DNA of 64,000 nt from NCBI GenBank assembly GCA_910584685.1, contig CAJUAO010000011.1, positions 22,300 through 86,299 of the forward strand, in the 5' to 3' direction. The DNA is from an uncultured Lachnospiraceae bacterium (GTDB lineage Bacteria; Bacillota; Clostridia; Lachnospirales; Lachnospiraceae). Positions 7,213-28,852 of the stretch are shown here, in pieces (within the stretch, counting starts at the first letter, position 1; each line of letters begins with the position of its first letter). The position numbers were made by a program, and so were the translations under genes. Below the pieces are notes generated by a model, which saw only the letters and a program-made list of their open reading frames with translations, had not been told where the DNA came from and ran no database searches.

Positions 7213-8031
7213 TTATCCTAATCCCACCTTTCTTACCGACTCGTATTCAATGCGTATTTCACATGGAAGGGAGGTAGTAATTATATTTAGATTGTCTTCA
7301 TATCTGTTTCCAAGCCTGAAATAGTTGTAATTAAAGTCATTGTATAATTTATGTGTTGGAACGGAAGTCTCAATAACTTTATGATTTCCGTCTATAGTTA
7401 TAACCTCATCCTTTACACAGTTCCTGATTTCTGTAGTTCTGTTTTCAATTGAATTGTGTATTGTTAAATTACCGCTTGCCAAGCACTTGCAGATAAATAC
7501 TTTTGGATATATATGACCTGTTTCATTGGACATATTAAAGATGCTAAAGTCTGAAGAAGCAGTAGTAGTAAAATCAAGGCTTACATCCTCATAACCATAA
7601 GGGCTGTCTGTTACAAAGGTTAGTTCAAGACCATATATTTCCCCGCCAATCTTTAGCTGACTGATGTTATTGAAGCTTCCCATAAAGAAAGTATCTTCAA
7701 ATCCTTTCTGATACAGCTTGAATTTATGGTATCCGTCTCTTCTTGCTAACCAGCGGAGCAAAGAGGTAAGTTCTTCAGGAGAGATAAACCTGTATTCAGG
7801 ATTATGGCAATCCATCTTGCAGATTTGAAATGCTGCGCTTAAAGGCTCGTCATAAGTAGCAGCAGACAGATAGTTTCTATCGGAAATACTTGTTTTTATA
7901 GTGTTGAAGGTCAGATTATTTCCTATAGACACGGTTTCAGAGGAATTACTGTCAAATTTACATAAAATCATTCCATAGTCTGATAGTTTTTCATTGTCAT
8001 ACAGGAAGTTTGTTGCTGTGTTTGGTATCAT
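7213..8031 (-). CDS. Distal tail protein (Dit-like)
   Basis: 272 aa, located between the tape measure gene and Tal, which is the canonical siphovirus order. Its stop abuts the Tal start. Confidence 0.65.
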   Translation of the reverse strand: MIPNTATNFLYDNEKLSDYGMILCKFDSNSSETVSIGNNLTFNTIKTSISDRNYLSAATYDEPLSAAFQICKMDCHNPEYRFISPEELTSLLRWLARRDGYHKFKLYQKGFEDTFFMGSFNNISQLKIGGEIYGLELTFVTDSPYGYEDVSLDFTTTASSDFSIFNMSNETGHIYPKVFICKCLASGNLTIHNSIENRTTEIRNCVKDEVITIDGNHKVIETSVPTHKLYNDFNYNYFRLGNRYEDNLNIITTSLPCEIRIEYESVRKVGLG

Positions 8032-8225: not shown

Positions 8226-11200
8226 CTATCTTGTATGCCTGAGCTTATCCAAAGGAGTTCCTTTACCTGTTAATGCGTGGTTAATAGAAGTAAACACAGC
8301 TTTTTCAAATGTATTGTCTTTTATTAACTGATTTCTGAAACCTGAATAATCTGTTACGTTTGGAAGCTCAAGATTTACATTTATATCACCAACATTAACC
8401 TGTGAGGACTGACTGTTTGCCATACTGCCAAAATCCGGAACAGAAAAATTAAATGTCGGCTTTGGTATCGTAGCAGTAATACTCGCCGGGTCTATGTTAT
8501 ACTTCTTCATATAAGTTTCCGGATTCTGTGAAAGCTCCCACAGTCTCCTTGAGGACTCATTGTCAAACACCATATCACCGGAACTTAAAGGCGTAAGCAC
8601 TGCTCCGTCAGCGGTACGGTATATAATCTCCTCCCCGTCCTCCTGTGTCCAGTGATAACCCCTGGCTGCATTTGAAGTTCCTGACTTGTAGCCGTTTGAT
8701 TTAAGGTAATTTAACAGCTTGGTATTCTGTGAAGGGCTGCCTGTGTAAGCGCCGCCGAATATTTTACTCCAATACATGGCACGGGCAGAGAATGAGCTGT
8801 CCTTGTCATAGTATTTAAGCCTGTCTACAACACTTGTGTCTATATTTAATGAGTTTTTCGGATAGTAGTCCTTTTTGCTTATTAGTATACTGTCAAGCAA
8901 TGACTTGCCTGTTTTTGAAGTATTAGACGAAGATGATATAGAACTTGGATTAATTGGGTTTGAGTTTGATACAGGATTATTGATTGTATTTTTATTGCCG
9001 TTTCCTGTATTGGTATTTGGGGTATTAACAGCAGGATTAATTATAGGATTATAAGGATTAGTTGATGAGCCTGTGTTATGATTTCCATTGCTGTTGGCAG
9101 CAATATTTGAGCCTGCATTGGTTTTACTTTCATCTGCATTTACAAGATTTGCAACATGTGATACCAGATTATTTATAGCGGTTGTTGTTCCTGCAATAGA
9201 GGTGCTTACCCCGCCTAACCCGCTGTTAAGGGAATTTGATACATTGCTTAATCCGCCTTTTAATTCGCCTGTAAGAGATTGGGTGAAAGGACTGTCAGAG
9301 CTAAATATGGTGCTTAAGGAATCGCTGATAAATGTTCCATAGTATTCGCTTGTTTCCTTTAATGTAGTATTTATTGTATCGCCCTGTGATGATATCTGGC
9401 TTATTATCTGTGCTATCAGCTCGTCTGAATGGTCTAAACGCTCATTCATCCAATTCTCATAGTCTTCGGCTAACTGGTCAAGCATTGTTTCCGTGTCGCT
9501 TAAATACTGCTCGTATTCGCTTTCCTTTAAATCTGCCTTGGCTTCTTCAAGCTGTACACGTATCTGCTGGATTTTTGACATGGCTTCCTCGGAGGTATCG
9601 CCTTCATAAGCAAGCTTTTGCTTTTCAAGGGAGGAAATGTTGTCTGTCTTTTCAGCTATGCTCTTTTGATAGTCGTATAGGTTTTTTTCTGCATTAAGCT
9701 GTTCTTTTTTCTTGTCAATGAGCCTTTGTAATGCGTCTAACTGCGCATTGTAGCCGTCTTCTATAAGGTCTAGGATTGACTGTTTTTCATCCTCGGCGGC
9801 AAGAACGGCATCCTGATGGGCTTTAACCATTTCATTGTACTGGGCTAAAACTTCATCTCCTGCGCCGTTTATAAGCTGCTTTTGTAAGTCCTGAACTTCC
9901 TCGTAGTAATCCTGTGCCTGTTGTTTGTATACGTCATAAGCAGCGGCATGTAACGCCATGGAGGCAGTACCATAGTTGGTTATCTGTCCGTTTTCATCAA
10001 ATAGGTGTTTCTTTGACAGCAGCTCAACGTAATAATCTGTTTCTTCTGTAATACGGTTAAGGGATTCTTCTAAATACTCAAAGATTTCCCAGTTTAGGTC
10101 ACGTATGGTATTGTTGAAGTCAACGAGGTTGTTTGTCATGGAGTCAATTTCTTTATCTATGTCCATGAGGGTTGAGTACATGTCATTCCATTCGGCAGTT
10201 CCCTGCTTGTGCAGGGTGTTGTTTAGTATACTCTGTAGCTGTGTACGCTCGTTTTTAAGGGTGTCAAGATGTTTTTGAGTATACTCAATCATGCCGTTGT
10301 AGTAGCTTTCGTTGGCAAACTGTCCCTTTAATTCCAGCAGGTCGACTTTGTTTTGGATTGTCTGCAGAGCGTGCTCCAGGATGGAGGTGTCAAAGTCGAA
10401 GGCTTCCTTTAGATTGTCGAATTGGAGCTTGTCAATATTTTTTAATGCAGTTTCAGCATCTAAAATCTGACTGTCGAGGGTGTCAAGCTGTGATATAAGA
10501 TTATACCATTGTTCGGTATGCTGCTGTATATCAGAAGAATTGAGATTGTTTTGTAAAGCATTGCGTTGGGCTTGCAATTTGTTTACTATATCAGCCTGTT
10601 TGCTTCTGAGGGTATCATAGTTACCTGATGAGGAGAGAAGTGTTATCTGGTTTTCTAAAAGGTCGTATGCTGACTGCATACGGTTTATAACAGCGTCATA
10701 CTCTGATTTAATGTTGTCAAACTTTTGTGTGTTAAGCTGATTTAGCTCTGAATTTAAATCCTGCTGTGTTTTAAGACATTCCTGTGCTTTTTCATACCAG
10801 GTCTGATAATCACTGATTTTGTCTTTAATTATTTTGTCTTCAGGCGTTTCATCCAGAATAATGCCGATGTCAATGGCACCTTTTTGCACAAGTGTTTTAT
10901 ATGGTTCGGGTAATCCGACAGAGTCAGCTTTCTGCATATATCTTGTATATGCCTGTGACTGTAATTCTATGGCATCCTTTGTTTTGGATATGGCGTTTGC
11001 AAGCTCAGTATTGCGTTTTGTCCATGATGAATAGGTGTTGTTGGCTTTAGCTTTTATTGTGTCTAAGGCTTCATTTAGTCTCTTGATTTTTGTTTCTATC
11101 CAATCGTAGGTTTGGGAGGTGTCTTTGTCAGGGGATAAGGAAGAAGGGGATTTAGGAGTACCGGTATATGAAGCAAAATTTATCTTACTGCCAATAATGG

Positions 11201-13541
11201 CTTCATAATCCATGTTTAATAATAAATCCTGTAAATCAGATATTTTATTTTCTGCTGATGCAATCATGCCGCCATAAATTGCAACGGGATTAGTTAAATT
11301 TATTCCAATGCCGTTAGACCAATATCCTTTGTCATCATATTGCTGCTTGGCTTGTTTGTATTGTGACTTTGCTGTTTCAATATCATCATTTGCCTCAGAA
11401 ATTTTCCTTTGGATATCAAGCTTGGCATTTAAGTAATTTCCATAATTGGTTAGGTCTATATCATATGTTTTCTTTAAATTGTCTACCCAGCCTTTATTAT
11501 TCTCAATAAAACTATTCCACCATGTTTCACCATATATAGTTTCTTTATTAATATTATATTTTTCATAATTAAGCAGGTCATCTTTATATAGAGCACGTAA
11601 TGCTTTAACCATTTCTTCGGCATTACTTATTCCCATTGCTTCCATATTTTCTATAACAGTTTGTACTTCACTATTTGTCATAGAGTACAACCCTTTTAGG
11701 GTATCAGAAGAGCGAATATATTCAGTTACAATTTCATTAAATGCTGATTGAATTTCTTCGGTGGTTTTAGTTGGATTTCCTATGACAGACTCAAATAAAT
11801 CGTAACCATCTAAATCTGAAAGAATACTATCCCTTATGTTAAATAAAGTAGAAGATAGAACATATCCTTTATCCTGAAATTCTGTATAGGCTTCATTAAG
11901 GTTATTTATAGCAGAAGCAGCACTGGACAGAGATTCAACACCGTCAAGTAAATTCATAATATTAAGATAACAGGCTTCGGCAGATAATTTTGTATCTTTA
12001 AGCAGCTTAGAATATTCTGCCGTAGATGAAATTATTTCAGGGCTTAATTTTCCTGTTCTTGCTAATTCAAGAAGTTCCTTTTTTGCTTCTGCAAAGTCGG
12101 CTGCATTGAAGGCATCGTTGAAAGAAGTAATCAATTTTTCACTTTTTATTATTTTGTCTTCAAGTTTAAAAATCATATTATTAAAATATGCATCAAGTAT
12201 ATCAGATATTATAGGATAGCTATCTTTTAGTTTATTAAATACAGAAACCAAATTATTATAAACTATATCTTCATCATTATCTATATCATTTGTTAATTTA
12301 TCTAAATATTCACTCCATAAATCATTTATAACATCTGTATCAGAAAAAATCTCCTGTAATGATTTTGTGATTTCTTTACTGTCTGTAATACCACTCATAA
12401 ATAATCTGTCGATTATGCTGTTTATTTCCGTTGGGGTTAAGAAGCTGTTTAAATCATTAACAGTATCAGAAAACGCAGAATGTACATGGTCAAGTATATC
12501 CTCAAAACCGTTTTTGAGTTCCTCTTCAGAAGGAATCGATAGTTTAGATCCTTGAACACCATAACCACCATAATTATTAACCTTTTCCAATGCCTCTCTA
12601 TATATTTTTGCATACTCGTTTATAGTGCCTGAGAATTCACCCTTTTCTATAGCTTGGCCTATTAACTCATCTGCATATTCGCCAACTGTTTTAGAATAAT
12701 CAGTAGACCATTTTCCTTTTTTATACCATTTTTCTTTTTCATATTTATTATTCCATGTATAAAATTCTCTTATATTGTCAAAAGTCATATCAGAGCCAAA
12801 GCCACTGTTTTCAACTTCTGTATTAAGAGCAGTATTAAATTCCGCAGTGCTGCGTTTTTTTTCTGCTTCTTCAGCAGCTTTTTTCTGAAGTTCTATCTCA
12901 CGTTCTATTTGAAGATTTAAAATTTCATATGCATTTGACTGTTTAAGTATTTTGCTTGTTCCTGAGCCAAGTGTATCATTAAGCTCATCAGCCAATGAGT
13001 TCATTTTGGCTTGGCTGTATCTGGCGTCCTCAAGCTTTTCCTTCAGGTTTTCTAACGCCGTGATTTTAGATTCTGCTGTTGAAATGGTTTCTTCAGATTT
13101 GTCAATTATTTCCTGCTGTTTTTCCAGGTAACGTTCATTAGCAGAGGTAAGATATTGGATACCTTCAATTAGTTTAGATATAGCGATTGATATAGTTGTC
13201 ATTGCAAGCATGTTTCCGGCCGTAGAAAGACCTTTTAGTGCAATTTGACCTGCTTTTGATATCTTTGGAATTTGTTCTAAATTGACTGTTGCATCTCCTG
13301 CAGATTTTGCAATATTAGCAGCAGCAACAGATGCGTTTTGTAATGTTCTGTAATATGCCGTAGCGGGAGATGCTCCACGTTTTATTTCTGAATTATAAGC
13401 TTTCAGCGCATATATGTCACTGTTATTTAATACGCTTTTTTTCTTAAAAAAATCATTGTTCAAACTAAAAAAATTTTTTAATCCACTATTAATTGATAAT
13501 TTTGTATTTCCAAACTCATTAGTTATTGTTTTAAATATCAT
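8226..13541 (-). CDS. Tape measure protein, C-terminal part (putative exon 2)
   Basis: 1771-aa ORF, long coiled-coil-rich protein. Hydrophobic segments near its N-terminus continue the pattern of the upstream TP901-type core ORF. An in-frame TAA lies 6 nt upstream of the annotated ATG. No convincing RBS of its own. Confidence 0.8.
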   Translation of the reverse strand: MIFKTITNEFGNTKLSINSGLKNFFSLNNDFFKKKSVLNNSDIYALKAYNSEIKRGASPATAYYRTLQNASVAAANIAKSAGDATVNLEQIPKISKAGQIALKGLSTAGNMLAMTTISIAISKLIEGIQYLTSANERYLEKQQEIIDKSEETISTAESKITALENLKEKLEDARYSQAKMNSLADELNDTLGSGTSKILKQSNAYEILNLQIEREIELQKKAAEEAEKKRSTAEFNTALNTEVENSGFGSDMTFDNIREFYTWNNKYEKEKWYKKGKWSTDYSKTVGEYADELIGQAIEKGEFSGTINEYAKIYREALEKVNNYGGYGVQGSKLSIPSEEELKNGFEDILDHVHSAFSDTVNDLNSFLTPTEINSIIDRLFMSGITDSKEITKSLQEIFSDTDVINDLWSEYLDKLTNDIDNDEDIVYNNLVSVFNKLKDSYPIISDILDAYFNNMIFKLEDKIIKSEKLITSFNDAFNAADFAEAKKELLELARTGKLSPEIISSTAEYSKLLKDTKLSAEACYLNIMNLLDGVESLSSAASAINNLNEAYTEFQDKGYVLSSTLFNIRDSILSDLDGYDLFESVIGNPTKTTEEIQSAFNEIVTEYIRSSDTLKGLYSMTNSEVQTVIENMEAMGISNAEEMVKALRALYKDDLLNYEKYNINKETIYGETWWNSFIENNKGWVDNLKKTYDIDLTNYGNYLNAKLDIQRKISEANDDIETAKSQYKQAKQQYDDKGYWSNGIGINLTNPVAIYGGMIASAENKISDLQDLLLNMDYEAIIGSKINFASYTGTPKSPSSLSPDKDTSQTYDWIETKIKRLNEALDTIKAKANNTYSSWTKRNTELANAISKTKDAIELQSQAYTRYMQKADSVGLPEPYKTLVQKGAIDIGIILDETPEDKIIKDKISDYQTWYEKAQECLKTQQDLNSELNQLNTQKFDNIKSEYDAVINRMQSAYDLLENQITLLSSSGNYDTLRSKQADIVNKLQAQRNALQNNLNSSDIQQHTEQWYNLISQLDTLDSQILDAETALKNIDKLQFDNLKEAFDFDTSILEHALQTIQNKVDLLELKGQFANESYYNGMIEYTQKHLDTLKNERTQLQSILNNTLHKQGTAEWNDMYSTLMDIDKEIDSMTNNLVDFNNTIRDLNWEIFEYLEESLNRITEETDYYVELLSKKHLFDENGQITNYGTASMALHAAAYDVYKQQAQDYYEEVQDLQKQLINGAGDEVLAQYNEMVKAHQDAVLAAEDEKQSILDLIEDGYNAQLDALQRLIDKKKEQLNAEKNLYDYQKSIAEKTDNISSLEKQKLAYEGDTSEEAMSKIQQIRVQLEEAKADLKESEYEQYLSDTETMLDQLAEDYENWMNERLDHSDELIAQIISQISSQGDTINTTLKETSEYYGTFISDSLSTIFSSDSPFTQSLTGELKGGLSNVSNSLNSGLGGVSTSIAGTTTAINNLVSHVANLVNADESKTNAGSNIAANSNGNHNTGSSTNPYNPIINPAVNTPNTNTGNGNKNTINNPVSNSNPINPSSISSSSNTSKTGKSLLDSILISKKDYYPKNSLNIDTSVVDRLKYYDKDSSFSARAMYWSKIFGGAYTGSPSQNTKLLNYLKSNGYKSGTSNAARGYHWTQEDGEEIIYRTADGAVLTPLSSGDMVFDNESSRRLWELSQNPETYMKKYNIDPASITATIPKPTFNFSVPDFGSMANSQSSQVNVGDINVNLELPNVTDYSGFRNQLIKDNTFEKAVFTSINHALTGKGTPLDKLRHTR

Positions 13542-13618: not shown

Positions 13619-13942
13619 ATGCAAATATATCAATGTCCTAATTGTGGAAGAACTTTTTCAGAGTTTGCAAATATATATTATTGTCCTGTTTGTAATTATA
13701 GACTTGTCAAACAGGAAGATATTAAAGAAATAAAACATCCTGAGCTGTCAGACCGTGATGAACATATTATTGGGGAATTGCCTGACCCAACGAAACCAAA
13801 TGTAGCTTGTCCCTATTGCACATCGTCAAATATTAAAAAAATTAGTAGCAGTAGTCGTTGGCTATCTATAGGCATGTTAGGCATATTCAGTAATAAGATA
13901 GGAAAAAATTTTCACTGTAATAATTGTGGAGCAAATTTTTAA
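13619..13942 (+). CDS. Double zinc-ribbon small protein (107 aa), antisense inside the TMP intervening sequence
   Basis: AAGGAGG RBS 7 nt before the ATG. Two CxxC...CxxC pairs (CPNC..CPVC and CPYC..CNNC) with a short hydrophobic stretch in the second ribbon. Confidence 0.7.
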   Translation: MQIYQCPNCGRTFSEFANIYYCPVCNYRLVKQEDIKEIKHPELSDRDEHIIGELPDPTKPNVACPYCTSSNIKKISSSSRWLSIGMLGIFSNKIGKNFHCNNCGANF

Positions 13943-14717: not shown

Positions 14718-16049
14718 TTAGGCATGAAGGGCATATTCAAAACAATTTTTTGAAATCCGTACACTCATACGGCGTTTACCAATGTTCTTTATTCCTGAAA
14801 ACAATCCTGCGCCAAGTCCAATAGTACCTGCCGAACCAATAGAGCCGGTTACTTTATCAATAACTCCAACCACCCCGTTTAAGCTATTTATTATTTTTAT
14901 AAATGCATCAGAGTCTGCAATATTTCCAATGGTTTTTGTAAAGGTGTTGCTTAAGCGCTGAAGGCTTCCTTCCCACGAATTTGCTGTTTTTTCCACGTCA
15001 GCAGCCATTGAGCCGGCGCCGGAGTTATAATCCCTAAGCATTTCCTCATATAAAGAGTAATTTTCAAGAATAGCGTTAAGAGCGTCGGCTCTGTCCCCGC
15101 CGCCGACAGAATTAAGAAGATTAGCCCGTCTTGAGTCGCTTTCCTCAAGCCTTGTATACTTCTCTGATAATTCTTCTAAAATTTCCATCGGCTCCTTAAG
15201 AGAAACAACGCCATTCTTTACGGTTGACAAAGAAACGCCTAACTCATTACAGGCTTCTTCATATTTCGTCAGGGAGCTTTCATCAATAAAGTCGCCCCCG
15301 TCATTTGCGTCTCCTGTTATCTGCCGCAGATTCATTAAAATACCGTTAAAGGAATTTCCAATTTCTGCTCCGCCTTTTTTTGTAACGGAAAGTAATGTTC
15401 CAACAGCAGCAGTAGTTTCATCTATATCCATCTGAGAATCGGAAGCCCTTGAGCTTACAACAGACATAGCCTCAGCAAGCTCTGTCATATCAATGGAATG
15501 TCTGTTTGTAATATTGTTTGCGCCATCTAAAGCGGCGGTTAATGACTGTATGGAGCCGTTCATTTTATAGGCATTGTCAGCGGCCCTAATATATTCGTTT
15601 GCCAAATCAGAAGTAATACCTCCGGCAGACTGAATAGCTGTCGATAATTCGGCAATTTGTTCAGCGTTTTTATATCCTGCATCAGCTGCTGATTTAAATT
15701 CAGACAGGTAATCTAATGCCGTTTTGCCATATTTGCCGGCAATGGTAAAGGCATTATTTTTTACGTTTTCTAATTGTGATTTAGACAGGGAGCTGTTAGA
15801 TTTGCTTATTTCTGTTAATAAGGTATTAACATCCTTTAATTGTGATACGGCTTCCTTTGTCTTTTCAACAACGCCTGATACGGCATTACTTAAGGAAAAA
15901 AAATCTGTAATAATTTTACCGGCCTCTTTGAACTGGTCTTTTATAGCGTTGCCAAGCTTATCCAGGTAGTGCTGCTGTGAATCAATTTCCTTTAAATTAT
16001 TTTGCGTTGATTTGGATTGAGCGTCAGTTTGTTCATTATTATTTGCCAA
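14718..16049 (-). CDS. Tape measure protein, N-terminal part (putative exon 1; last ~15-20 codons probably intron-derived read-through)
   Basis: 443 aa with TTG start and AAAGGA RBS. The TIAGKYGKTALDYLSEFKSAADAGY... region resembles the TP901-family TMP core. It ends in a G/A/L-rich hydrophobic segment and then unrelated residues. Confidence 0.8.
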   Translation of the reverse strand: MANNNEQTDAQSKSTQNNLKEIDSQQHYLDKLGNAIKDQFKEAGKIITDFFSLSNAVSGVVEKTKEAVSQLKDVNTLLTEISKSNSSLSKSQLENVKNNAFTIAGKYGKTALDYLSEFKSAADAGYKNAEQIAELSTAIQSAGGITSDLANEYIRAADNAYKMNGSIQSLTAALDGANNITNRHSIDMTELAEAMSVVSSRASDSQMDIDETTAAVGTLLSVTKKGGAEIGNSFNGILMNLRQITGDANDGGDFIDESSLTKYEEACNELGVSLSTVKNGVVSLKEPMEILEELSEKYTRLEESDSRRANLLNSVGGGDRADALNAILENYSLYEEMLRDYNSGAGSMAADVEKTANSWEGSLQRLSNTFTKTIGNIADSDAFIKIINSLNGVVGVIDKVTGSIGSAGTIGLGAGLFSGIKNIGKRRMSVRISKNCFEYALHA

Positions 16050-17416: not shown

Positions 17417-17725
17417 TTATGTTTTGTTCATCTGCTTTAGGGCAGCCTCAAGCAGCACGCGAATTTGCTCATCTGTAATAAATTCTTTTTTAGAGTTAAA
17501 CATTTTGTCAATGAAGGTTATGACGTATTCGCGTTTTTCTTCACCAGATTTAGGAGCGTTAAAAAGCATTTCCGCAGCTTCCGCTGCCTTGGTAATCCAT
17601 TTAGAAGCCTCGTCAAGCTTTGCAGAAGATATTTTTGTTTTTATGTATGGAATAATATAGCCTGTGATAATTGCGCCAATCAAAGGAATAAGTGTTAAAA
17701 TTATTTTATATAAGTTGTCATTCAT
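17417..17725 (-). CDS. Holin (LL-H-type pattern)
   Basis: 102 aa with an N-terminal TM helix and a charged tail. It lies directly downstream of the amidase and resembles LL-H family holins as I recall them. Confidence 0.65.
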   Translation of the reverse strand: MNDNLYKIILTLIPLIGAIITGYIIPYIKTKISSAKLDEASKWITKAAEAAEMLFNAPKSGEEKREYVITFIDKMFNSKKEFITDEQIRVLLEAALKQMNKT

Positions 17726-17752: not shown

Positions 17753-18967
17753 TTATTCAATAATAATTTGAAACCTGCCGATTGATACGCCTTGTGTGCC
17801 CGCATATCCGTCGCAGCCGTTAGTCTTTTCATTGTCATACTGCCAGCTATAATAGTCCCTGCCTATAGGAGCAACCCTGTATTTTGCTTTTTTGTATGCG
17901 TAGCCGCCGGGAGTAATATAATAAACCTCAGCCATGTCAATATCCTTCTTACAGTCGCCGGCGTATCCGTTGTTAAAATCATTTATATTGTATCCTGTTA
18001 CATAAGGATACCAGCCGCCGCCTTTAACATGCACCCTGTATTTTACAGAGCCCTTATCAGTTCTGACACTAATGGCCCTGATAGGATTTTTGCCATCTCC
18101 GGCGTAGTCCTCAAGATTTTTAACCTCTGAATACCATCTGTCTCCTGCGTACACTCTGTAATAAACATTTACGTCAAGATTTTTTGGGGAAGAGGAAGGC
18201 TTTGAAGAAGCCGCTGTATTATTTGGTAAGGAGTCGGAAACAGCAGCATTTGCTGAGGATGTTGTTGATGATACATGTGAGGGATTTGTATAAATAACAT
18301 TTCCATTACTGTCAAAAACAGAATATCCGTTTATGCAAGCAGCCTTTGCATAAGCAAGAGAATAGAAGGCGCCAAGCTGGCCTGCCGCATCTTCCCACGT
18401 CTTTCTTACCCTGTAGAGCTCACCGGTAGCTGCAGAGCCTGAGGTTTTTGATAAGCTGTTTTTAAAATTATTCCATTTTGAGCTGTCGTTTCCATACCAG
18501 CCCTTCCAGCCGGGACAATGCTTTCCGCTCACATCAAAGTGTCTGTATACGTTAGAGGCAGGAATATTATATTTATCCATAATTTCCTTTCCCAAAGCAA
18601 TGGCATTTCCTATTGTAGCCTCTGAAATTTCACCGTTTACAGAGCACATTTCTACAGATATGCTGTTTGTGTTTGTTATTTTCCCATACATGGCTCCTCC
18701 GCCGGTAGCCTCGCAGTCAGAATATTTTCTGTCGCCTACAGCCCATGCGGTGACTAAATCAGGAACTGACTGATATACTGTATTATCATCAACAAAATAA
18801 TGGGCGGAGGCCTGTATTATGTTATTTTTAAAATAATTAGCATTGTTAGCCGCAGTGTCAGTCTGGTTTCCTGTGTAATGGTAAATAAGATATTTAATCG
18901 AAGAAGAAGCTCTCCTTACCCCGTAATTTTCCGGAGCTGATATTAATGTATATTTTGTAAACGCCAT
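17753..18967 (-). CDS. Endolysin: N-acetylmuramoyl-L-alanine amidase with C-terminal cell-wall-binding (ChW-like) repeats
   Basis: Amidase_2/PGRP-like N-terminus (HYTGN...SAHYFVD...HCPG). S/T-rich linker. Repeated YRV..GG.WY...GYAG units typical of clostridial ChW repeats. Confidence 0.85.
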   Translation of the reverse strand: MAFTKYTLISAPENYGVRRASSSIKYLIYHYTGNQTDTAANNANYFKNNIIQASAHYFVDDNTVYQSVPDLVTAWAVGDRKYSDCEATGGGAMYGKITNTNSISVEMCSVNGEISEATIGNAIALGKEIMDKYNIPASNVYRHFDVSGKHCPGWKGWYGNDSSKWNNFKNSLSKTSGSAATGELYRVRKTWEDAAGQLGAFYSLAYAKAACINGYSVFDSNGNVIYTNPSHVSSTTSSANAAVSDSLPNNTAASSKPSSSPKNLDVNVYYRVYAGDRWYSEVKNLEDYAGDGKNPIRAISVRTDKGSVKYRVHVKGGGWYPYVTGYNINDFNNGYAGDCKKDIDMAEVYYITPGGYAYKKAKYRVAPIGRDYYSWQYDNEKTNGCDGYAGTQGVSIGRFQIIIE

Positions 18968-21568: not shown

Positions 21569-21907
21569 CTAACTATTAAAATATCCGTTAAGCCTTCTGT
21601 TATAGTACCTTGTAATTTTTGGCCTTGCCCATATTTTAGGGGAGGTTTCAAATAATTCTCCTGTTTCGGGATGTATCATTTTCTTTTCACCCTTATATGA
21701 ACAGTCAATGCTGATTCCGTTAAAAAGCTTTAAGGAAACCTTATCAACGGAGGAAGCTAAAGAAAGCAGCTCAAAGATATAATTTTCCAGCGTCAGGTAC
21801 ACAGATTGGGCTACGGGAAGGGGAATGCCTTCACGTATGGCGATTTCTTTTATTATTTGTTCCTTATTTATTACCGTATAAAACACCTCCTGCATGTATG
21901 CTTCCAT
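21569..21907 (-). CDS. HU/IHF-like DNA-binding protein (YonN-like position)
   Basis: ~110 aa. INKEQIIKEIAIREG resembles the HU N-terminal helix, and HPETGELFETSPKIWARPKI resembles the HU beta-arm (NP.TGE..I.A......F). It sits directly downstream of the YonO-like gene. Confidence 0.6.
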   Translation of the reverse strand: MEAYMQEVFYTVINKEQIIKEIAIREGIPLPVAQSVYLTLENYIFELLSLASSVDKVSLKLFNGISIDCSYKGEKKMIHPETGELFETSPKIWARPKITRYYNRRLNGYFNS

Positions 21908-22008: not shown

Positions 22009-24780
22009 CTAGTTTTTATGTGACCTCCAATATTCCCGCTTAATGCGTTTATTTTCCTCATGCTGGCACAGGCTGCATCTGCACGCTTTAGAGTTTAGAG
22101 CGTCAACCTCAAGCCATTCCCCACAGTCAATACATTTAATTACCTTAGTTTTCTTAGGAGTATAGTTTTGTTTTAAATTTTCAACAATATACTTACCATA
22201 GCAAAACCATAGCAATTCCTTAGCCCTTCTGTTTTTCTGCCCATAAAGATGCTTAACCAGCATATCGGTTGTTTCTGTATCAGAATATCCAAAGACAGAC
22301 AGCTCGTCTCTTATCCGACAGGCAAGAAAGTGCAAATTATTATGAAATTCATCCTTCATTGAAATTTTAAAATGATATGTATTATTAAGCTCTTTATATC
22401 TTTCAATGAGTCTTTCATCTGTTTTTATATTTGCATTGCGCATAAGATATCTATAGTCTATAGGCTTTAAGCCTGATTTTCTTGTGTTAAGCCGGGGGTT
22501 AGGAATTAAGGAGTCCAGCTTGTTGACAATGCTGTCATTTATTTTTTCAACCTGCGTCTCCTCCTTATCCTTGGCATATACAAAGAAATGAGGAACCTTT
22601 TTTCCCGTAAATTCTTTTATTGCTTTGTCAATATTGTCCGGTCTTTCAGGCTTGTACAGAGTTTTTGCAAAATCAATGCAGAAGTTGTTTTCCATACATA
22701 AAAGCTTTACAATATCGCATGCCTTACTTTTATCATCATGGGAGCCTGTAATAAAAATATCGGAATTCCATATTTTTGTAATGTTATTGCTATATGTTCC
22801 TATATTACTTCCCGTAAAGGCTGCATTTAAGCCCTTATATATGTTTGCATTATTTAACATGGCAGGCTCTGATTTCTTCATATTATAATACAGGGGAACA
22901 ACCTCCTTCATTTCTCTTTTGCCAATATCCACTATTATTTTGCTGCCGATAACAAGAGAACGGTCGCCGTCAACGTCAAACTGAAGTATTTTGCTGATTA
23001 GGTCGTGGCAGCTTGTATAAAGCGCCTGCGTATTAAACCATTCTGAAATCATTTTCTTTCTCTCATCAGATGATATGTTTGCCGCGTTTTCCCTTATGGC
23101 ATGCTCCTTGTATAAATGGGGAGAGCGAAGGCAGTCAAGCTCCTTACGATGCTTGTACAGGCTGCACCAAACCTCAGATTTACTTAACAGACCTTCAGGG
23201 CTTTTAATTCCTAAAAACCAGTACTCACAGGCGGCGTAGAAATCAGGCAGTATAAAGGTGTATTTTCCCTCTGTTTCAAGCTTTGCGGATTTATACTGCT
23301 TTACAAGACTATCCTTTATGCTTTTAAGTATATCCTTAAAGTAAGGGTCATTCATAATATCAGGATATATTTTTACAGCCTCCTGAAGGGGAGTCATATT
23401 TGTATTGTATGGCGTAACGCCAAATACCTTCTGCATTCCGGAAACAGAGGAACAGAGGCTGTTCAGTCTGTCTATGGAGGGCGCTGCAATTTTTGCTAAT
23501 TCCAAATCAGTCATTCCGGTTAAGGTCTGCAATTCCTGATAGTTAAGTCTTGAATTAGGTATCCTTTCCTCCTCCACATTACAAATACCTGCCTTACAGC
23601 CATAGGATTTAAAATATTCCTTGTATTCCTCCCATGAAGAATAATATTTATACATCTTAAACTGACTTTTAGTGAAAATAATATAAATATTTTCCTTGAT
23701 AATATCATGCTCCCTGCCATAAATATCCTTAAGTGTGCCAATAGTATTGTCATGATATTTTTCACGCCATTTAAGAATAAGCTTTCTAAAATCGAATACT
23801 CCTAACAGTCCCTTGAGCCATGGAGCGCGAAACATCCTGTTTCTTCCGAATAAGACCATACCTGCTCCGTCAGTGTGGGTAATGGGAATCTCGCCCTTAG
23901 TTCTGACGATTGAATAGTCGGTATCGTCTATAAAATCATATTCGCCAAATACATTTGTCTCAAAATCATCAATGACAATAGTTCTGTCTATGTCAAAATC
24001 AGACCATTCGTCAGTGGCAGAATTGGCAAGGGCCATATATGCAAGATGCTTGTTTACGTTGTTGCCTCCTTTTTCATTGATTTTGTCAATGGTAAGACCA
24101 CACATAATAGTTTTTTCGTATCTGTCCCACAGCGTTTCCCTGATAAAGACGGCTTTTTTTTCACGAATCTGACCTGCCGACGAGGTATAATACCTGTATT
24201 TTTCACCCTTGTATGTAAAGCCGTAAAAGACAAGGTCCTTAAAAATATCAAAGTAATATACCTGTACAACAATAATATCCTCTGTAAAATCATTCATTTT
24301 TAGTCCAATCATTCTGGTTAATGAGGATTCGAAAAGTGAGATTACGTTTTTTTCTGATATAGTATTTTCATTTAGTTTTCTTGGCGGATAAATACAATCA
24401 TTATCCTTATTAATACGGCAAGCTTCTTTAGCCTTAATCTTATTAGACAACAGAAGCGCCAGTTTGTTTTTTAAGGCGTCTGCCGCCTTAGTCTTTAATT
24501 TTTTTATTCGTGAAAGCTCAATGTAAAAGCATAATTTGGAATAGCTGCCGTCAATTATTTTTATGGAAAGCATATCAGGGTTTTCATGGGCTGCCTTTTG
24601 CAAATCCTTACAGGAATATCCTGCTTTTGTAAGCTGTGCAGTCAGGACTTTGATTTTTTCTGCCACATTTTTAAGCTCACTCCTGATTTTTGCGTTCTTA
24701 TTATGTAATGCTCTTTCCTTATTTGTATAAAAATTTCCTGTATCAACAGAATAAATATTAATCTGATTTTCCAACGCCAT
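22009..24780 (-). CDS. YonO-like single-subunit two-barrel RNA polymerase with C-terminal zinc ribbon
   Basis: 923 aa with AGGAGGAA RBS. RSPHLY (aa 552-557, nt 23110-23127) and QFDVDGD (aa 602-606, nt 22963-22977) match the R.P.LH...DxDGD catalytic barrel of beta-prime/RdRP/YonO. TDGAG and RAPWLKG lie at aa 303-323. C-terminal CIDC...CRCSLC. Confidence 0.7.
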   Translation of the reverse strand: MALENQINIYSVDTGNFYTNKERALHNKNAKIRSELKNVAEKIKVLTAQLTKAGYSCKDLQKAAHENPDMLSIKIIDGSYSKLCFYIELSRIKKLKTKAADALKNKLALLLSNKIKAKEACRINKDNDCIYPPRKLNENTISEKNVISLFESSLTRMIGLKMNDFTEDIIVVQVYYFDIFKDLVFYGFTYKGEKYRYYTSSAGQIREKKAVFIRETLWDRYEKTIMCGLTIDKINEKGGNNVNKHLAYMALANSATDEWSDFDIDRTIVIDDFETNVFGEYDFIDDTDYSIVRTKGEIPITHTDGAGMVLFGRNRMFRAPWLKGLLGVFDFRKLILKWREKYHDNTIGTLKDIYGREHDIIKENIYIIFTKSQFKMYKYYSSWEEYKEYFKSYGCKAGICNVEEERIPNSRLNYQELQTLTGMTDLELAKIAAPSIDRLNSLCSSVSGMQKVFGVTPYNTNMTPLQEAVKIYPDIMNDPYFKDILKSIKDSLVKQYKSAKLETEGKYTFILPDFYAACEYWFLGIKSPEGLLSKSEVWCSLYKHRKELDCLRSPHLYKEHAIRENAANISSDERKKMISEWFNTQALYTSCHDLISKILQFDVDGDRSLVIGSKIIVDIGKREMKEVVPLYYNMKKSEPAMLNNANIYKGLNAAFTGSNIGTYSNNITKIWNSDIFITGSHDDKSKACDIVKLLCMENNFCIDFAKTLYKPERPDNIDKAIKEFTGKKVPHFFVYAKDKEETQVEKINDSIVNKLDSLIPNPRLNTRKSGLKPIDYRYLMRNANIKTDERLIERYKELNNTYHFKISMKDEFHNNLHFLACRIRDELSVFGYSDTETTDMLVKHLYGQKNRRAKELLWFCYGKYIVENLKQNYTPKKTKVIKCIDCGEWLEVDALNSKACRCSLCQHEENKRIKREYWRSHKN

Positions 24781-24795
24781 GATTGTTCCTCCTTT

Positions 24796-25368
24796 TTAAG
24801 CTTTAAGCCATACCTCCCAATATCCGTCGCAATATCTTGTTTTTAAGGTATCATAATGAAATTTCAAAAGCTCCGTAATCTGATAAATATAATAGCAGTA
24901 ATCTGTCTGTCCGCTGCGAATGTTATTTAAAACGTCATTAATATATGAGCAATAGGACTGCCAGTTTGTCTGTCCGTGAAATTCACCCATTGTTTCATTA
25001 TTCCACATACCTGACTCTCTTGAAAATTTACCGCCAAGCTTTTTAACCTCCTTTCTGTACGGAGTGACAAACATTTTTCTAAGAAGAAACTCTTGCTGCC
25101 ATTTTTCGTCGGTAAGGGAAGTAGAAGGTCTTCCGTCAGTATTTGAGATTAATCTCATTTCCCTTAATTCCTCCAAGGTAATATTCCTATATTTTTCTTT
25201 CATTTTTTTCTCCCTTTCTAATGTATTTTGCAGATTAACTGCATCTGCCTGATTATTTATTCTCTTTTTGTTTGGTGAATTAGTACTGAAATCATCTAAA
25301 TCAATCTCGCCTCCAAAAGAAGAATGTGACCTGTTATATGCTCCTGTTTTGTAAAATAATGTTGTCAT
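24796..25368 (-). CDS. Hypothetical protein (190 aa), first gene of the minus-strand operon
   Basis: AAAGGAGAAAAA RBS. No motif recognised. Confidence 0.55.
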   Translation of the reverse strand: MTTLFYKTGAYNRSHSSFGGEIDLDDFSTNSPNKKRINNQADAVNLQNTLEREKKMKEKYRNITLEELREMRLISNTDGRPSTSLTDEKWQQEFLLRKMFVTPYRKEVKKLGGKFSRESGMWNNETMGEFHGQTNWQSYCSYINDVLNNIRSGQTDYCYYIYQITELLKFHYDTLKTRYCDGYWEVWLKA

Positions 25369-25570
25369 TGTATTTTTCTCCTTTATATTTTTAATTCTGA
25401 TAGCTGCAATATATATTTCTACATTAGAAATTAAAAACCCATCGTTTAATCACAAAAAATATTATAGAAGTTTTTTTGTTTTTAAGGGTAATACTAAGTC
25501 CGTCTTATTGGACATAAAAGGTGATACCATTATTTGGTAAAAATACCTGTTTTATATTACAAAAGAAAAA

Positions 25571-25584
25571 CGAACTGTTGTTCG
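25571..25584. promoter_or_regulatory. LexA (Cheo/SOS) box 1
   Basis: CGAACTGTTGTTCG is a perfect match to the Firmicutes consensus CGAAC-N4-GTTCG. Confidence 0.8.
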
Positions 25585-25593
25585 GAAAAATGG

Positions 25594-25622
25594 TTGACAA
25601 GAACGCATGTTCGTGATATATT
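25594..25622 (+). promoter_or_regulatory. SigmaA-type promoter of the sigma-factor/DUF262 operon
   Basis: -35 TTGACA (25594-25599), 17-nt spacer, TG-extended -10 TGaTATATT (25614-25622). Confidence 0.75.
25600..25613. promoter_or_regulatory. LexA (Cheo/SOS) box 2, inside the promoter spacer
   Basis: AGAACGCATGTTCG matches GAAC-N4-GTTC, with 13 of 14 positions agreeing with the full consensus. It occupies the -35/-10 spacer. Confidence 0.75.
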
Positions 25623-25664
25623 AAAAAAACACAAAAGAAAAAAATATAAGGAAGGTACTTTAAA

Positions 25665-26222
25665 TTGGAAGAAATATTGGAACTTTATTATGCAGACAAT
25701 GCCCGGAAACTGCACAATATGGTAGACACTGTTTTACGGAGGCTTGGATTTTATTGCATAGGAAATATTGAAGATTTCTATTCCCTTGCAAATGAGGTTT
25801 TTGCTGACGTAATAGTAAAATATGACGAGGGACGGGACTTTGACGCTTTTTTACACACATGTCTTTCAAACAGGTTTAAGACGGAAATGACTGCAAGAAA
25901 CAGGCAGAAAAGACTGGCTGACAAAATGGCGGTGTCAATTTATACGTCTGTTAATGATGACGATAATTCTACATTAGGTGATATTATTCCAGACAGCTTT
26001 AGTATTGAAAAGGAAATTTTTGAAAAGAGGGAGGAGGTATTAAACGAAAGAATACTGCTATATTTAAACAGACTTTCAAATCTTCAAAGAGAGGTGCTAA
26101 GACTTAATGCGTCGGGATATTTGCCTAATGAGATTAAGGAGAAGCTGCATATAACCGAAAAGCAGTATTCAGACTGCAATGCGGCAATTCACTCATATAA
26201 GAATGTATCGGTATTATTTTAA
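25665..26222 (+). CDS. Small sigma-70 family factor (TcdR/UviA/Xpf-like)
   Basis: 185 aa with TTG start after AAGGAAGG. Region-2-like FDAFLHTCLSNRFKTEMTARNRQKR. Region-4 HTH LQREVLRLNASGYLPNEIKEKLHITEKQYSDCNAAI. Confidence 0.7.
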   Translation: MEEILELYYADNARKLHNMVDTVLRRLGFYCIGNIEDFYSLANEVFADVIVKYDEGRDFDAFLHTCLSNRFKTEMTARNRQKRLADKMAVSIYTSVNDDDNSTLGDIIPDSFSIEKEIFEKREEVLNERILLYLNRLSNLQREVLRLNASGYLPNEIKEKLHITEKQYSDCNAAIHSYKNVSVLF

Positions 26223-26247
26223 CAAAAGAAGAAAGAGGTGTTTAAGG

Positions 26248-27630
26248 ATGGCAAGACCACGAAAACAAACCTATACTATGGAAATGTACTTAGACAAGAT
26301 AAGAGACGGCGATATATGCAATGATGCAGACGTTCAAAGAAATTTTGTGTGGAATAACGAGCAGATTAATGAATTAATAGTTACAGTGCTTACAGACGAT
26401 TATATTCCGCCTATTATTCTTGGGGAAGAAAATAATTCACAGCTTCATATTGCAGACGGAGGCTGTCGAAGCGCAGCATTAAGCAGATTCAGATACGGAA
26501 ATTATAAAATTACGTCAGCTATTGAGGATTCGATTATTACCTATAAGAAAAAGGTTAAGACTGACAACAGTAAAATTATATGGGAGGACGCCGTATTTGA
26601 TATTAAAAATAAAACATATGAAAAGCTGCCGGACGAGCTGAAAAAGAAGTTTGACGAATATCAGATAGAGACTGTTATCCATGAAAACTGCGACAGATAC
26701 AAAATATCAAAATATATTAAAAGGTATAACAATCATGTTTCAATGAACACAAACCAGAAGGCGTTTACATATCTGTATAATTTTGCCGGATATGTACGGC
26801 AGATTTTAGACAGCAGGTTTTTTCTTGACTACAGCAGCTATACGGAGACAGAAAAAACAAAGGGTATGGCTGAGAGAATAATCGTTGAAACCATTATGTG
26901 TACAAATTATCTGGATAATTGGAAAAAACAGACGAAGGAAATTTGCAAGTTTTTGAATAAGAATGGAACAAACGCAGAGTTTGAAAGGTTTGCTGATAAT
27001 ATCCACAGGCTGGAAAATATAATTACTGATGAGACTAAGGACATATTTAACAGCAAGGATTCCTTTATTTTTCTGACTTTGTTTGACAGATTTACTGAAT
27101 TAAAGGTTGATGATGCAAGATTTGCAGATTTCCTTAAGGAATTTAAGAATAATCTGCGACTGGTTAAAGCTAATGATAAGGGGCTGTTGTTTGACCAGAT
27201 TGATAAGGACAAAGGAACTAAGGATAAGGCGGTTATTATTGCAAAATTAGATATGCTTGAAGGCTTAATGCTGGAATTTTTACATTATAAGGATAAACCG
27301 GATAATCATGCTTCCGGCAATGACAGCGTAGAATTATTTATATTGGAAAATGTAAAGATAGATAAAAAAACACTGCAAAAGGATATGGATTTGTATCTGG
27401 ATACATTAGAGGGCAGCTATGGGCTAAAGGAAAAATGTATAAGAGTCGGCTCAAGGCTCCTTGATGAGAGAAACAGACCTTCCCTTCTTGCAATGGTTGC
27501 CTATTCATATAAGACAGGTCAGGATTTGGATGACTGGCTGACTGAATATGCAAAAAATCACAAAACATATATTGCAGACCAAAAAAAGAATTACTTACAT
27601 ATGTTAAATGATTTTAAAAGATATCAATAA
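26248..27630 (+). CDS. DUF262 (ParB/GmrSD N-terminal-like) domain protein without recognisable nuclease domain
   Basis: ATG at 26248 after GAAAGAGG. DVQRNFVWNNEQINELIVTVL...IPPIIL...IADGGCRSAAL matches the DUF262 QR..vW...LI.S....P.i...DGqQR pattern. No DUF1524/HNH His-motif is seen in the C-terminal 300 aa. Confidence 0.7.
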   Translation: MARPRKQTYTMEMYLDKIRDGDICNDADVQRNFVWNNEQINELIVTVLTDDYIPPIILGEENNSQLHIADGGCRSAALSRFRYGNYKITSAIEDSIITYKKKVKTDNSKIIWEDAVFDIKNKTYEKLPDELKKKFDEYQIETVIHENCDRYKISKYIKRYNNHVSMNTNQKAFTYLYNFAGYVRQILDSRFFLDYSSYTETEKTKGMAERIIVETIMCTNYLDNWKKQTKEICKFLNKNGTNAEFERFADNIHRLENIITDETKDIFNSKDSFIFLTLFDRFTELKVDDARFADFLKEFKNNLRLVKANDKGLLFDQIDKDKGTKDKAVIIAKLDMLEGLMLEFLHYKDKPDNHASGNDSVELFILENVKIDKKTLQKDMDLYLDTLEGSYGLKEKCIRVGSRLLDERNRPSLLAMVAYSYKTGQDLDDWLTEYAKNHKTYIADQKKNYLHMLNDFKRYQ

Positions 27631-27643
27631 GGTTAATCCTTTG

Positions 27644-27672
27644 TTGAAAACAAAGGGAAAATATGATATAAT
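27644..27672 (+). promoter_or_regulatory. Putative sigmaA promoter upstream of the sugar-binding protein gene
   Basis: -35 TTGAAA (27644-27649), 17-nt spacer, TG-extended -10 TATAAT (27667-27672). Confidence 0.5.
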
Positions 27673-27790
27673 CAGCACATTAGAGCAGAATATGATAAGT
27701 AAACATATTTATGTTAAAGTATGCACGATACTAAGAATAAGTATAGGTATTGTATTATTGTTAAAAAAAATAAACGGAGGAAAATATTTT

Positions 27791-28852
27791 ATGAAGAAAA
27801 AAATCAGCTTATTATTTTTAGCCATATTTATTGTTGGTATTATGGTGGGATGCGGCTCAAACGAGAGTATGTCAAAAAAGGTGGAACTAAGGGATGAGCC
27901 GGTTAAGTCCAGTTCAGACTATGGAAACGGAACAGGAAATATATCCTCCGGAGGTACAAATAAAGACAATAATACAACCTCAGATACCTTAAAGGTGGGC
28001 TTTATACAGACAGCAAATGAAAGCGGCTGGAGAGCTGCCCATACACAATCAATGAAGGATACGTTTGACACAGACGAGTATACATATACCTTTGTTGACG
28101 GTCAGGGAGACCAGGCTGTCCAGATAGCAGGAATGGAAAGATTTATAAAAGAAGCCTATGATGTTATAATACTTGACCCTATTGTTGAGGAAGGCTGGGA
28201 CGACATACTTAAAAAGGCGCAAAATGCAGATATTCCGGTAATTGTAGTAGACAGAATGGTTTCTTCCGACAGCAGTCTGTATAGCTGCTGGATAGGCTCG
28301 GACTTTGAGAAGGAGGGAAAGGATGCGGCTCAGTGGCTTGTAGATAATAAGGGAACAACGGAAGCGCAAAATATAGTTATATTAGAGGGTACTAAGGGCG
28401 CGTCGGCACAGCTTGGACGAACATCAGGCTTTGATGCAGTTATAAGTCAGTACGATAATTATACTGTGCTTGCAAGCGAAGACGGTGACTTTGATAAGGC
28501 TAAGGGTAAGGAGCTTATGAAGAATTACATGGGAAGATTTGACAAGATAGATGTTATTGTTACCCAGAATGATAATATGGCGTACGGCGTTATTGAGGCA
28601 ATAAATGAGGCAGGAAAAAAGCCGTCGGACTATACAATAATATCCTTTGACGGAGAGGCAAATGCCTTTAAGGAAATGATAAACGGAAACATAGCCGTAG
28701 ATATAGAGTGTAATCCTCTTCAGGGACCAACCATTGAGGCGGTAATGAAAAAATTATTGGCAGGGGAGACTGTTGAAAAGAAGCTGTATATGGAGGAGGG
28801 AGTATATCCGGCATCCGTTGCAGCGCAAGAGGTTGCAAACCGTAAATATTAA
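27791..28852 (+). CDS. Sugar ABC-type periplasmic binding lipoprotein (PBP1, ribose/galactofuranose-binding-like)
   Basis: The true start is MKKKISLLFLAIFIVGIMVGC|GS (lipobox) after GGAGGAA. LKVGFIQTANESGWR... is typical of type-1 sugar-binding proteins. Confidence 0.8.
   Translation: MKKKISLLFLAIFIVGIMVGCGSNESMSKKVELRDEPVKSSSDYGNGTGNISSGGTNKDNNTTSDTLKVGFIQTANESGWRAAHTQSMKDTFDTDEYTYTFVDGQGDQAVQIAGMERFIKEAYDVIILDPIVEEGWDDILKKAQNADIPVIVVDRMVSSDSSLYSCWIGSDFEKEGKDAAQWLVDNKGTTEAQNIVILEGTKGASAQLGRTSGFDAVISQYDNYTVLASEDGDFDKAKGKELMKNYMGRFDKIDVIVTQNDNMAYGVIEAINEAGKKPSDYTIISFDGEANAFKEMINGNIAVDIECNPLQGPTIEAVMKKLLAGETVEKKLYMEEGVYPASVAAQEVANRKY

Follow-up and report, generated by a model that had tools for sequence, protein, structure and literature searches.

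A 64,000-nt stretch of DNA from an uncultured Lachnospiraceae bacterium (contig CAJUAO010000011.1, positions 22,300 to 86,299; hereafter the window) carries much of a phage-derived element, at whose right edge lie a gene for a sigma-like protein and a gene for a DUF262 protein. Two LexA operators accompany the sigma-A-type promoter in front of this pair, one of them within the spacer between the -35 and -10 hexamers and the other a short way upstream, and about a hundred related elements in gut Lachnospiraceae keep this design. We consider it likely that LexA shuts the sigma/DUF262 promoter and that DNA damage would lead, through the sigma-like protein, to a cascade in which a YonO-type RNA polymerase, tail genes and lysis genes are switched on.

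Both of the LexA boxes that an earlier note on this DNA had proposed can be read in the sequence. Box 1, the distal one (CGAACTGTTGTTCG, 25571-25584, strand not assigned), is a perfect CGAAC-N4-GTTCG 14-mer at approximately -59 to -46 from the predicted transcription start. Box 2, the proximal one (AGAACGCATGTTCG, 25600-25613, strand not assigned), is perfect in its 12-nt core and lies at approximately -30 to -17. The promoter itself is on the plus strand and consists of a -35 hexamer, TTGACA (25594-25599), a 17-nt spacer and a TG-extended -10 (TGaTATATT, 25614-25622, with the TG at 25614-25615 and TATATT at 25617-25622), with a predicted start near 25629-25630. Box 1 is placed 10 nt upstream of the -35 hexamer and box 2 takes up positions 1-14 of the 17 spacer positions. 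In a consensus promoter scan of 24700-28000 this was the best sigma-A-like site, with 11 of 12 matches plus the TG, and the near-consensus promoter with a box in its spacer is therefore seen both in the sequence and in the scan, as the note had described it. A ribosome-binding site (AAGGAAGG, 25648-25655, plus strand) lies 9 nt before the TTG start codon of the sigma gene at 25665. The leader of this gene is unstructured and has no match in Rfam.

The window contains three GAAC-N4-GTTC sequences where 0.45 would be expected, a number not reached in any of 100 shuffles. Box 1 and box 2 account for two of them and are 29 bp apart; the probability of finding two perfect sites within 40 bp by chance, estimated from the rate in this analysis, is about 3e-4. 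The scan with a LexA matrix that the earlier note had suggested was run with a matrix derived from the sites of the relatives described below, and in the window both boxes were top-scoring (15.6 and 14.6), the third site scored 10.3 and everything else scored 4.2 or less. Judged by these counts and scores the two boxes are not chance occurrences. No further LexA sites of the element were found within the window by the matrix scan. The third GAAC-N4-GTTC site (44143-44154), found between rpsO and pnp, has no promoter context and was rejected as a probable chance match. It is located between two imperfect direct repeats of approximately 30 nt (AAAGCGCCGCAGC.AAA..AGTTAAAACTC; window 44100-44290), possibly part of a structured pnp leader.

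A genome scan, with one genome per species, gave 80 loci with homologues of the sigma gene, almost all in Lachnospiraceae and with protein identities of 52-65%. Isolates with a relative of the element include Roseburia sp. 1XD42-69 (L005), Acetatifactor muris DSM 23669 (L041) and bacterium 1XD8-76 (L030). At least one perfect GAAC-N4-GTTC is present no more than 300 nt upstream of the sigma gene in 61 of these 80 loci. The density of perfect boxes is 3.7 per kb in the 300 nt upstream of the gene versus 0.02 per kb over the remaining 861 kb of the loci, a difference of approximately 190-fold, and several of the boxes counted with the remainder fall just slightly further upstream of the same sigma gene. 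When the box-in-spacer architecture is scored in a relaxed form it is present in 73 of 81 loci. The typical layout in the relatives is box 1, about 10 nt, TTGACA, 5 nt, GAACnnnnGTTC and TATACT. The box pair is present in 54 relatives, and in 53 relatives the distal box is 32-34 bp upstream of the proximal one (33 bp between box starts in 33 loci, 34 bp in 12 and 32 bp in eight). The -10 hexamer is TATACT in 57 cases and TATAAT in 13. Box 2 of the window is 4 nt nearer to the -35 hexamer than in most relatives, a shift that is shared by four of them (L067, L076, L110 and L111).

When 72 distinct sequences were aligned on the -35 hexamer, which is near-invariant among them, conservation of 80% or more was confined to the columns of the -35, the GAAC, the GTTC and the -10, and the remaining columns were conserved at approximately 30-55%. 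In this alignment the boxes and the promoter form a classical phylogenetic footprint, a pattern for which recent common ancestry cannot account, and such conservation indicates that the boxes in front of this sigma gene family are under strong purifying selection across many Lachnospiraceae genera. The LexA operator of Bacillus and Clostridia is GAAC-N4-GTT(C/T) (PMC4234289). The consensus of the sites in the relatives, (A/C)GAACATATGTTC(T/G), equals the LexA operator of B. subtilis and Clostridia (PMC4234289), and this match, together with the strong conservation in front of the sigma gene family, supports the proposal that the boxes are LexA operators. The half-sites are invariant across elements of many genera, which favours a conserved host factor over an element-specific repressor.

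The design extends to viral genomes. Among the IMG/VR viral contigs, 21 carry sigma homologues at 36-64% identity and approximately 15 of these share the boxes and the promoter. In some of the viral contigs a distance of 1-2.3 kb separates the promoter from the sigma gene downstream of it, and tRNA genes or an additional open reading frame (ORF) occupy the interval. In some relatives (L005, 4794-5260; also L095) one or two tRNA genes and a 209-aa ORF stand between the putative LexA-controlled promoter and the sigma gene, so that an SOS-induced transcript would carry the tRNAs.

The sigma gene of the window (25665-26222, plus strand) encodes a protein of 185 aa. Support for the TTG start comes from M1, which is invariant when the homologues are aligned; at least 944 homologues are of equal length. 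The protein matches the PHROG sigma families 1740 and 351 at 3e-7 and 8e-6. It reaches 30.2 bits with TIGR02937, against a cut-off of 42.9, and the SigH models of NCBIfam are likewise below threshold; the protein itself has no match in Pfam, and some of its homologues carry PF04542 or PF04539. A PDB profile search gave 44 matches at E<=1, of which 41 are sigma factors; the best 30 are sigma factors without exception, with a sigma-H structure at the top. The AlphaFold model (mean predicted local distance difference test score, pLDDT, 73.5) has a two-domain helical fold of the sigma2/sigma4 type, and the PDB matches that Foldseek listed for it at E<=0.1 are sigma factors only (SigH, extracytoplasmic function (ECF), SigB, sigma-28/WhiG and SigA types). 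The E-values are each modest and the case for the assignment is their agreement. By profile and model, then, the product is a divergent two-domain sigma-70-family protein, and the phage sigma factor expected downstream of the promoter is placed in the sigma-70 superfamily by PHROG, sub-threshold NCBIfam, PDB profile and fold searches alike.

We also looked for similarity to the sigma factors of the UviA/TcdR type. The 185-aa protein matched no NCBIfam model for the TcdR/UviA/BotR/TetR family (group 5), and tblastn against 72,556 plasmids (E<=1), a search which presumes that the uviA, tetR and botR plasmids are included among them, gave SigH and RpoD genes only.

The sigma stop codon is followed after 25 nt by the start of the gene for a ParB-like DUF262 protein of 460 aa (26248-27630, plus strand), and the terminator scan found no terminator between the two. 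The sigma-like and DUF262 genes form one operon. The longest ORF begins at 26179, but we placed the start at 26248 because the homologues are approximately 460 aa long and an ATG with a ribosome-binding site is seen there. The protein matches PF03235 (GmrSD_N/DUF262) at 33.9 bits against a cut-off of 33.2, and it also matches the defence protein NsnA. In its model (pLDDT 79.6) the best fold match is BrxU; likeness to BrxU, ParB and Noc is confined to the N-terminal domain, a DUF262 (ParB/Srx-like) fold with a conserved DGG-R motif. The helical C-terminal two-thirds of the protein had no structural match in the fold search. No DUF1524/HNH nuclease domain was found in the 460-aa protein by Pfam, NCBIfam or PADLOC.

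The two genes are adjacent in 78 of the 80 genome loci and in 20 of the 21 viral loci. In the 176-kb faecal phage MT835469.1 (L088, 7983-10280) the sigma-like and DUF262 proteins are fused in a single ORF of 765 aa. This pairing and the fusion suggest that the two proteins work together, and on this comparison they probably act as a pair. In the same phage a degenerate box1-TTGACA-box2 promoter lies 1.2 kb upstream of the fusion, followed by a tRNA gene and a 243-aa ORF.

Divergent from the pair, on the minus strand, is an operon that begins with a gene for a 190-aa protein (24796-25368), which was unmatched in Pfam, PHROG and NCBIfam and has homologues in nine loci. The next gene (22009-24780) encodes a YonO-type single-chain RNA polymerase of 923 aa (PF05183; phrog_8308 at 3e-242) that is 46% identical to YonO of SPbeta over residues 134-901 and 50% identical to the homologue of the C. 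botulinum phage D-1873. It is followed by a gene for an HU/YonN-like DNA-binding protein of 112 aa (21569-21907) with a weak Bac_DNA_binding match, in the same position as yonN in SPbeta. A large minus-strand ORF (approximately 900 aa) is found at the divergent position in most relatives.

The promoter scan of 24700-28000 gave no usable sigma-A promoter for this operon. Upstream of it there is a promoter-like motif, CTAATGTAGAAATATATATTGCAG (25404-25427, minus strand), with a conserved core block of approximately 20 nt (AAATGTAGAAATATATATTA) and a weak AAAATTT further upstream. The window holds one exact copy. At a matrix score of at least 14 the motif is present in 46 of 81 loci; counts were taken at the stricter thresholds, and a loose criterion (no more than five mismatches in the 20-mer) was rejected, its background being 27%. 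In two loci in which the polymerase gene is far from the sigma gene (L019 and L024) the motif stays with the polymerase gene. The motif is kept where the polymerase is only approximately 22% identical or is undetectable by tblastn and the sigma protein is still 52-65% identical. The Enterocloster phage PMBT24 has neither the sigma gene nor the motif, and a consensus-like sigma-A promoter precedes its polymerase gene. By this distribution the motif tracks the sigma gene and not the type of polymerase, and we infer that it is the target of the sigma-like factor.

The sigma gene itself is preceded, at a distance of 49 nt, by a copy of the motif in three loci (L005, L095 and L096), which suggests possible auto-activation, as with SigN; there is no such copy before the window's own sigma gene. 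In approximately ten relatives (L015, L018, L022, L023, L027, L031, L032, L053, L066 and L075) the intergenic region is short and box 1 is directly upstream of the motif, an arrangement in which one LexA site could control both directions. In the window box 1 and the motif are 145 bp apart. We found neither the 20-nt motif nor a LexA box pair in the yonO region of SPbeta, so SPbeta cannot tell whether the motif is a promoter of YonO.

The same minus-strand operon continues past the HU/YonN-like gene with the tail and lysis genes (1520-21532). Their order is YomV-like, YomU-like tube, endolysin (17753-18967), holin (17417-17725), a tape measure divided between two ORFs (14718-16049 and 8226-13541), Dit (7213-8031), Tal/fibre (3214-7212) and accessory genes. 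The tape-measure gene appears to be split, as its ORFs, of 443 aa and 1771 aa respectively, match consecutive parts of one PHROG profile, and the 1.2-kb gap between them holds an opposite-strand zinc-ribbon ORF (13619-13942). The left end of the element is outside the window. A contig of the same species (L091), which was reached by a search with a 251-aa protein (the P63C protein as query gave a 6-kb contig only), supplies the missing part. Beyond the window edge it carries a P63C-domain gene, two small ORFs and two fibre-like genes and then, approximately 6 kb past the edge, host-like genes (ThiF, HTH-AIRS and LytTR). The element is thus approximately 34 kb in length, made up of window positions 1-27630 plus L091 10757-16850.

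All ORFs of the element of 350 aa or more are assigned to polymerase, tail, lysis or DUF262. In the window plus L091, searches of Pfam and PHROGs found no capsid, portal, terminase, replication or integrase gene, and the same searches found no CI/Cro-type helix-turn-helix (HTH) protein and no LexA-like protein in the 34-kb element. The earlier observation that no repressor or integrase gene is visible at this end therefore holds for the whole element, L091 included, as far as Pfam and PHROGs detect such genes. Both a tail module and a lysis cassette, as expected of a tailocin, are present (tube, tape measure, Dit, Tal/fibre, endolysin and holin). By gene content it looks like a tailocin-like element or a defective remnant of the late region of an SPbeta-like phage, and unlike an ordinary prophage. 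The sigma/DUF262 pair also has relatives in viral contigs of 128-162 kb; full-size phages thus share the module.

The element is at the same site in all of the contigs read, among which no empty integration site was seen, and the window has no tRNA genes that could act as attachment sites. On the right, host genes with a promoter of their own (27644-27672) start directly after the DUF262 gene. The genes for a periplasmic binding protein and a methyl-accepting chemotaxis protein were ruled out as members of the element, as they are not downstream of the pair in the relatives. The longest ORF of the periplasmic binding protein overlaps the DUF262 stop codon by 23 nt, and the promoter, which is near-consensus and TG-extended, lies inside it (27608-27672). 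This gene probably starts further downstream than its longest ORF does, and the element ends on the right at approximately 27631-27643.

Two further observations concern other contigs of the species. In L091, outside the window, a LexA-like site with one mismatch (AAACGCATGTTC, 12632-12643, on the strand of the gene) is located approximately 260 nt upstream of the P63C-domain (Ant-like) gene. It is the sole LexA-like site found in L091 and could be a third LexA target of the element. In L116 and L117 (1-3100), which are from other strains, two large serine recombinase genes (565 and 531 aa) directly follow yonO and occupy the place of the HU-like and tail genes of the window. These recombinases may represent another mobile element that has inserted into the late operon.

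Direct repression of the sigma/DUF262 operon by host LexA, as proposed in the earlier note, is strongly supported by the operators, the promoter and their conservation. The sequence and the comparison show the operators, promoter, operon structure, protein families and conservation; the binding of LexA, the target of the sigma-like protein, the role of DUF262 and the production of a particle we infer. We suggest that host LexA, bound to two operators, would keep a strong sigma-A promoter shut. A LexA dimer on box 2, in the spacer between the -35 and the -10, would block RNA polymerase directly, and a second dimer on box 1, approximately 30 bp upstream, would probably contribute through cooperative binding or by blocking upstream contacts. 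Upon DNA damage RecA would become active, LexA would cleave itself and the sigma/DUF262 operon would be transcribed. The sigma-like factor, perhaps with DUF262, would then direct the host RNA polymerase to the motif at 25404-25427. Firing of the motif would turn on the divergent operon, first the YonO-type polymerase and then the tail and lysis genes, and the polymerase may take over late transcription, as in SPbeta. As head, packaging, integration and repressor genes are apparently absent, the output would probably be an SOS-triggered tailocin-like particle and lysis of the host.

Several points weigh against this interpretation. The boxes of the window are 29 bp apart in comparison with 32-34 bp in most relatives. 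The identity of the operators was judged by the published Bacillus and Clostridia consensus; neither the window nor the loci of the relatives contain a host SOS gene. The silencer of the SPbeta prophage is not LexA (PMC8270828). Clear copies of the motif are seen in no more than about a third to a half of the loci, the motif has no classical -35/-10 layout, and its reader could instead be the YonO-type polymerase, the DUF262 protein or a host factor. The absence of head genes is a matter of negative searches and ORF sizes with the left end taken from another contig, and a repressor could be hidden among the several small ORFs of the element that have no assignment.

The most serious alternative accepts that LexA control is real but holds that the sigma/DUF262 pair is SOS-induced accessory cargo, either a defence or exclusion system built on a DUF262 protein like those of GmrSD or BrxU or a self-killing system like SigN, and not the activator of the YonO operon. 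We regard this as rather doubtful. The pair is at the extreme edge of the element beside host genes, which is a typical place for accessory genes, but accessory cargo is usually variable among relatives and the position of the pair, divergent from the polymerase operon, is constant down to identities of 36% for the sigma protein and 22% for the polymerase. The DUF262 protein matches GmrSD_N and NsnA and has BrxU as its top fold match; a nuclease domain, however, was not found in it by the domain searches given above. The cargo explanation would also be consistent with the SigN regulon, which leaves out the pBS32 prophage genes (PMC6751061), with SPbeta, in which the LexA-regulated genes are not the lysis switch (PMC8270828), and with the existence of YonO-type phages that lack such a sigma. 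Against it, the divergent operon is without a sigma-A promoter and has a special conserved motif instead.

It is unlikely, in our view, that the pair is a promoter-specificity factor of the YonO-type polymerase rather than of the host polymerase, with the 20-nt motif as the YonO promoter. It is an open question whether YonO needs additional promoter-recognition factors (PMC5467207), the pair is found together with YonO-type polymerases and the motif is one contiguous block of approximately 20 nt, like the promoters of single-subunit polymerases. The motif, however, precedes the polymerase gene, and the first polymerase molecules could not arise in this way. In addition, it is unchanged where the polymerase is 22% identical or undetectable, and it is absent from the yonO region of SPbeta. 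YonO is also devoid of the flap and of further domains that multi-subunit polymerases have (PMC5467207). In our own reading the missing flap would be a site of sigma contact.

It is very improbable that the palindromes serve a repressor of LexA-like specificity encoded by the element itself, or that they are there by chance or as a structure such as a terminator. Phage homologues of LexA do exist, for example gp6 of GIL01 (PMC6182141), and the terminator scan flagged box 1 with a T-run on the minus strand. However, no LexA-like or HTH gene was found in the 34-kb element, and the half-sites are invariant across many genera, whereas operators specific for immunity would be variable. A terminator at box 1 would have nothing to terminate, since none of the minus-strand genes ends there, and chance is excluded by the window shuffles and the upstream density.

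LexA control of a mobile-element sigma factor has precedents, and that of SigN (ZpdN) from the B. subtilis plasmid pBS32 is the closest. LexA directly represses its main sigma-A promoter, as shown by lexA mutation and electrophoretic mobility shift assay, and once DNA damage has lifted this repression SigN switches on its regulon together with its own gene, and the cell dies (PMC6751061). Both systems have a mobile-element sigma gene behind a sigma-A promoter with a host LexA GAAC-N4-GTTC site, which in the case of SigN we also saw in the sequence. In contrast, there is one LexA box in front of sigN and here there are two, one of them within the spacer. The SigN system has neither a DUF262 partner nor a YonO-type polymerase, and the SigN regulon excludes prophage structural genes. 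Similarity between the proteins is generic only: tblastn gave no match, and the hhalign alignment (probability 76%, E 2e-5) covers 76 columns in a region common to sigma factors.

The earlier note had drawn analogies with UviA and Xpf. Both are apt as analogies, and SigN of pBS32 is a closer analogue that has been proven by experiment (PMC6751061). UviA, a member of the TcdR family from C. perfringens (UviA/BCN5; pIP404 and pBCNF5603), is encoded by an SOS- and UV-inducible sigma gene with a LexA site upstream and drives a bacteriocin gene (PMC4459074, PMC10467148). The likeness lies in an SOS-linked sigma gene with a LexA site upstream. However, the 185-aa protein has no detectable similarity to this plasmid-borne family and its best matches are SigH-like or ECF-like, and the output is one bacteriocin gene there and an operon for polymerase, tail and lysis here. 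PBSX, a defective phage-like element that the SOS response can induce, depends on a sigma-like factor (Xpf) for its late operon; it is under the control of the Xre repressor and its particles package DNA. Here, in contrast to PBSX with its packaged DNA and Xre repressor, head genes are not visible.

The local layout of the window is the same as in SPbeta: there, too, the yonP-yonO-yonN operon and a regulator gene diverge, and the late genes are transcribed by YonO (PMC5467207). In SPbeta, however, the divergent regulator is the Xre-like YonR and no LexA box pair is present at this place. In the B. thuringiensis phage GIL01, host LexA at the SOS boxes of the lytic promoter replaces a CI-type repressor (PMC4551915, PMC6182141), which resembles the role of LexA proposed here in that LexA serves as the repressor of a temperate phage. 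GIL01 differs in needing the small co-repressor gp7 and the LexA-like activator gp6, in being a complete tectivirus and in having neither a sigma factor nor a phage polymerase. Finally, GmrSD, BrxU, SspE and the ParB CTPases share with the DUF262 protein the N-terminal DUF262 (ParB/Srx-like) fold and the DGG-R motif, but in contrast with GmrSD, BrxU and SspE no DUF1524/HNH domain was detected here and the protein is tied to a sigma-like partner.

LexA control of a mobile-element sigma factor (SigN, UviA) and LexA as a phage repressor (GIL01) are thus already known, and the regulatory logic will not surprise a specialist. What is new is a sigma family that is both distinct and very widespread, the ParB-like DUF262 protein without a detectable nuclease domain that is its obligatory partner, a promoter with two operators of which one is within the spacer, the link to a YonO-type polymerase and, as the apparent output, a tail and lysis element without a head. 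A literature search found no paper describing a sigma/DUF262/YonO module.

A wider generalization is possible, and we put it forward tentatively: a three-tier cascade set off by DNA damage, from LexA to the sigma/DUF262 pair and from the pair to the YonO-type polymerase, may control tailocin-like elements or the late genes of large SPbeta-like phages as a module widespread in gut Lachnospiraceae, and the pair may be the missing switch factor for YonO-type genes. The data offer a concrete and testable link between the SOS response and YonO, for whose type the regulation and promoter factors are open questions (PMC5467207). The pairing with a sigma-like protein hints at a role for DUF262 in transcription rather than in restriction, and the compact promoter with an operator in its spacer is a candidate for a portable SOS-responsive part for Firmicutes. 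Taken together, the data suggest that abundant gut Lachnospiraceae harbour a large family of phage-derived elements that would be induced directly by host LexA, without a CI-type repressor, which bears on the induction of prophages and tailocins in the gut by antibiotics and inflammation.

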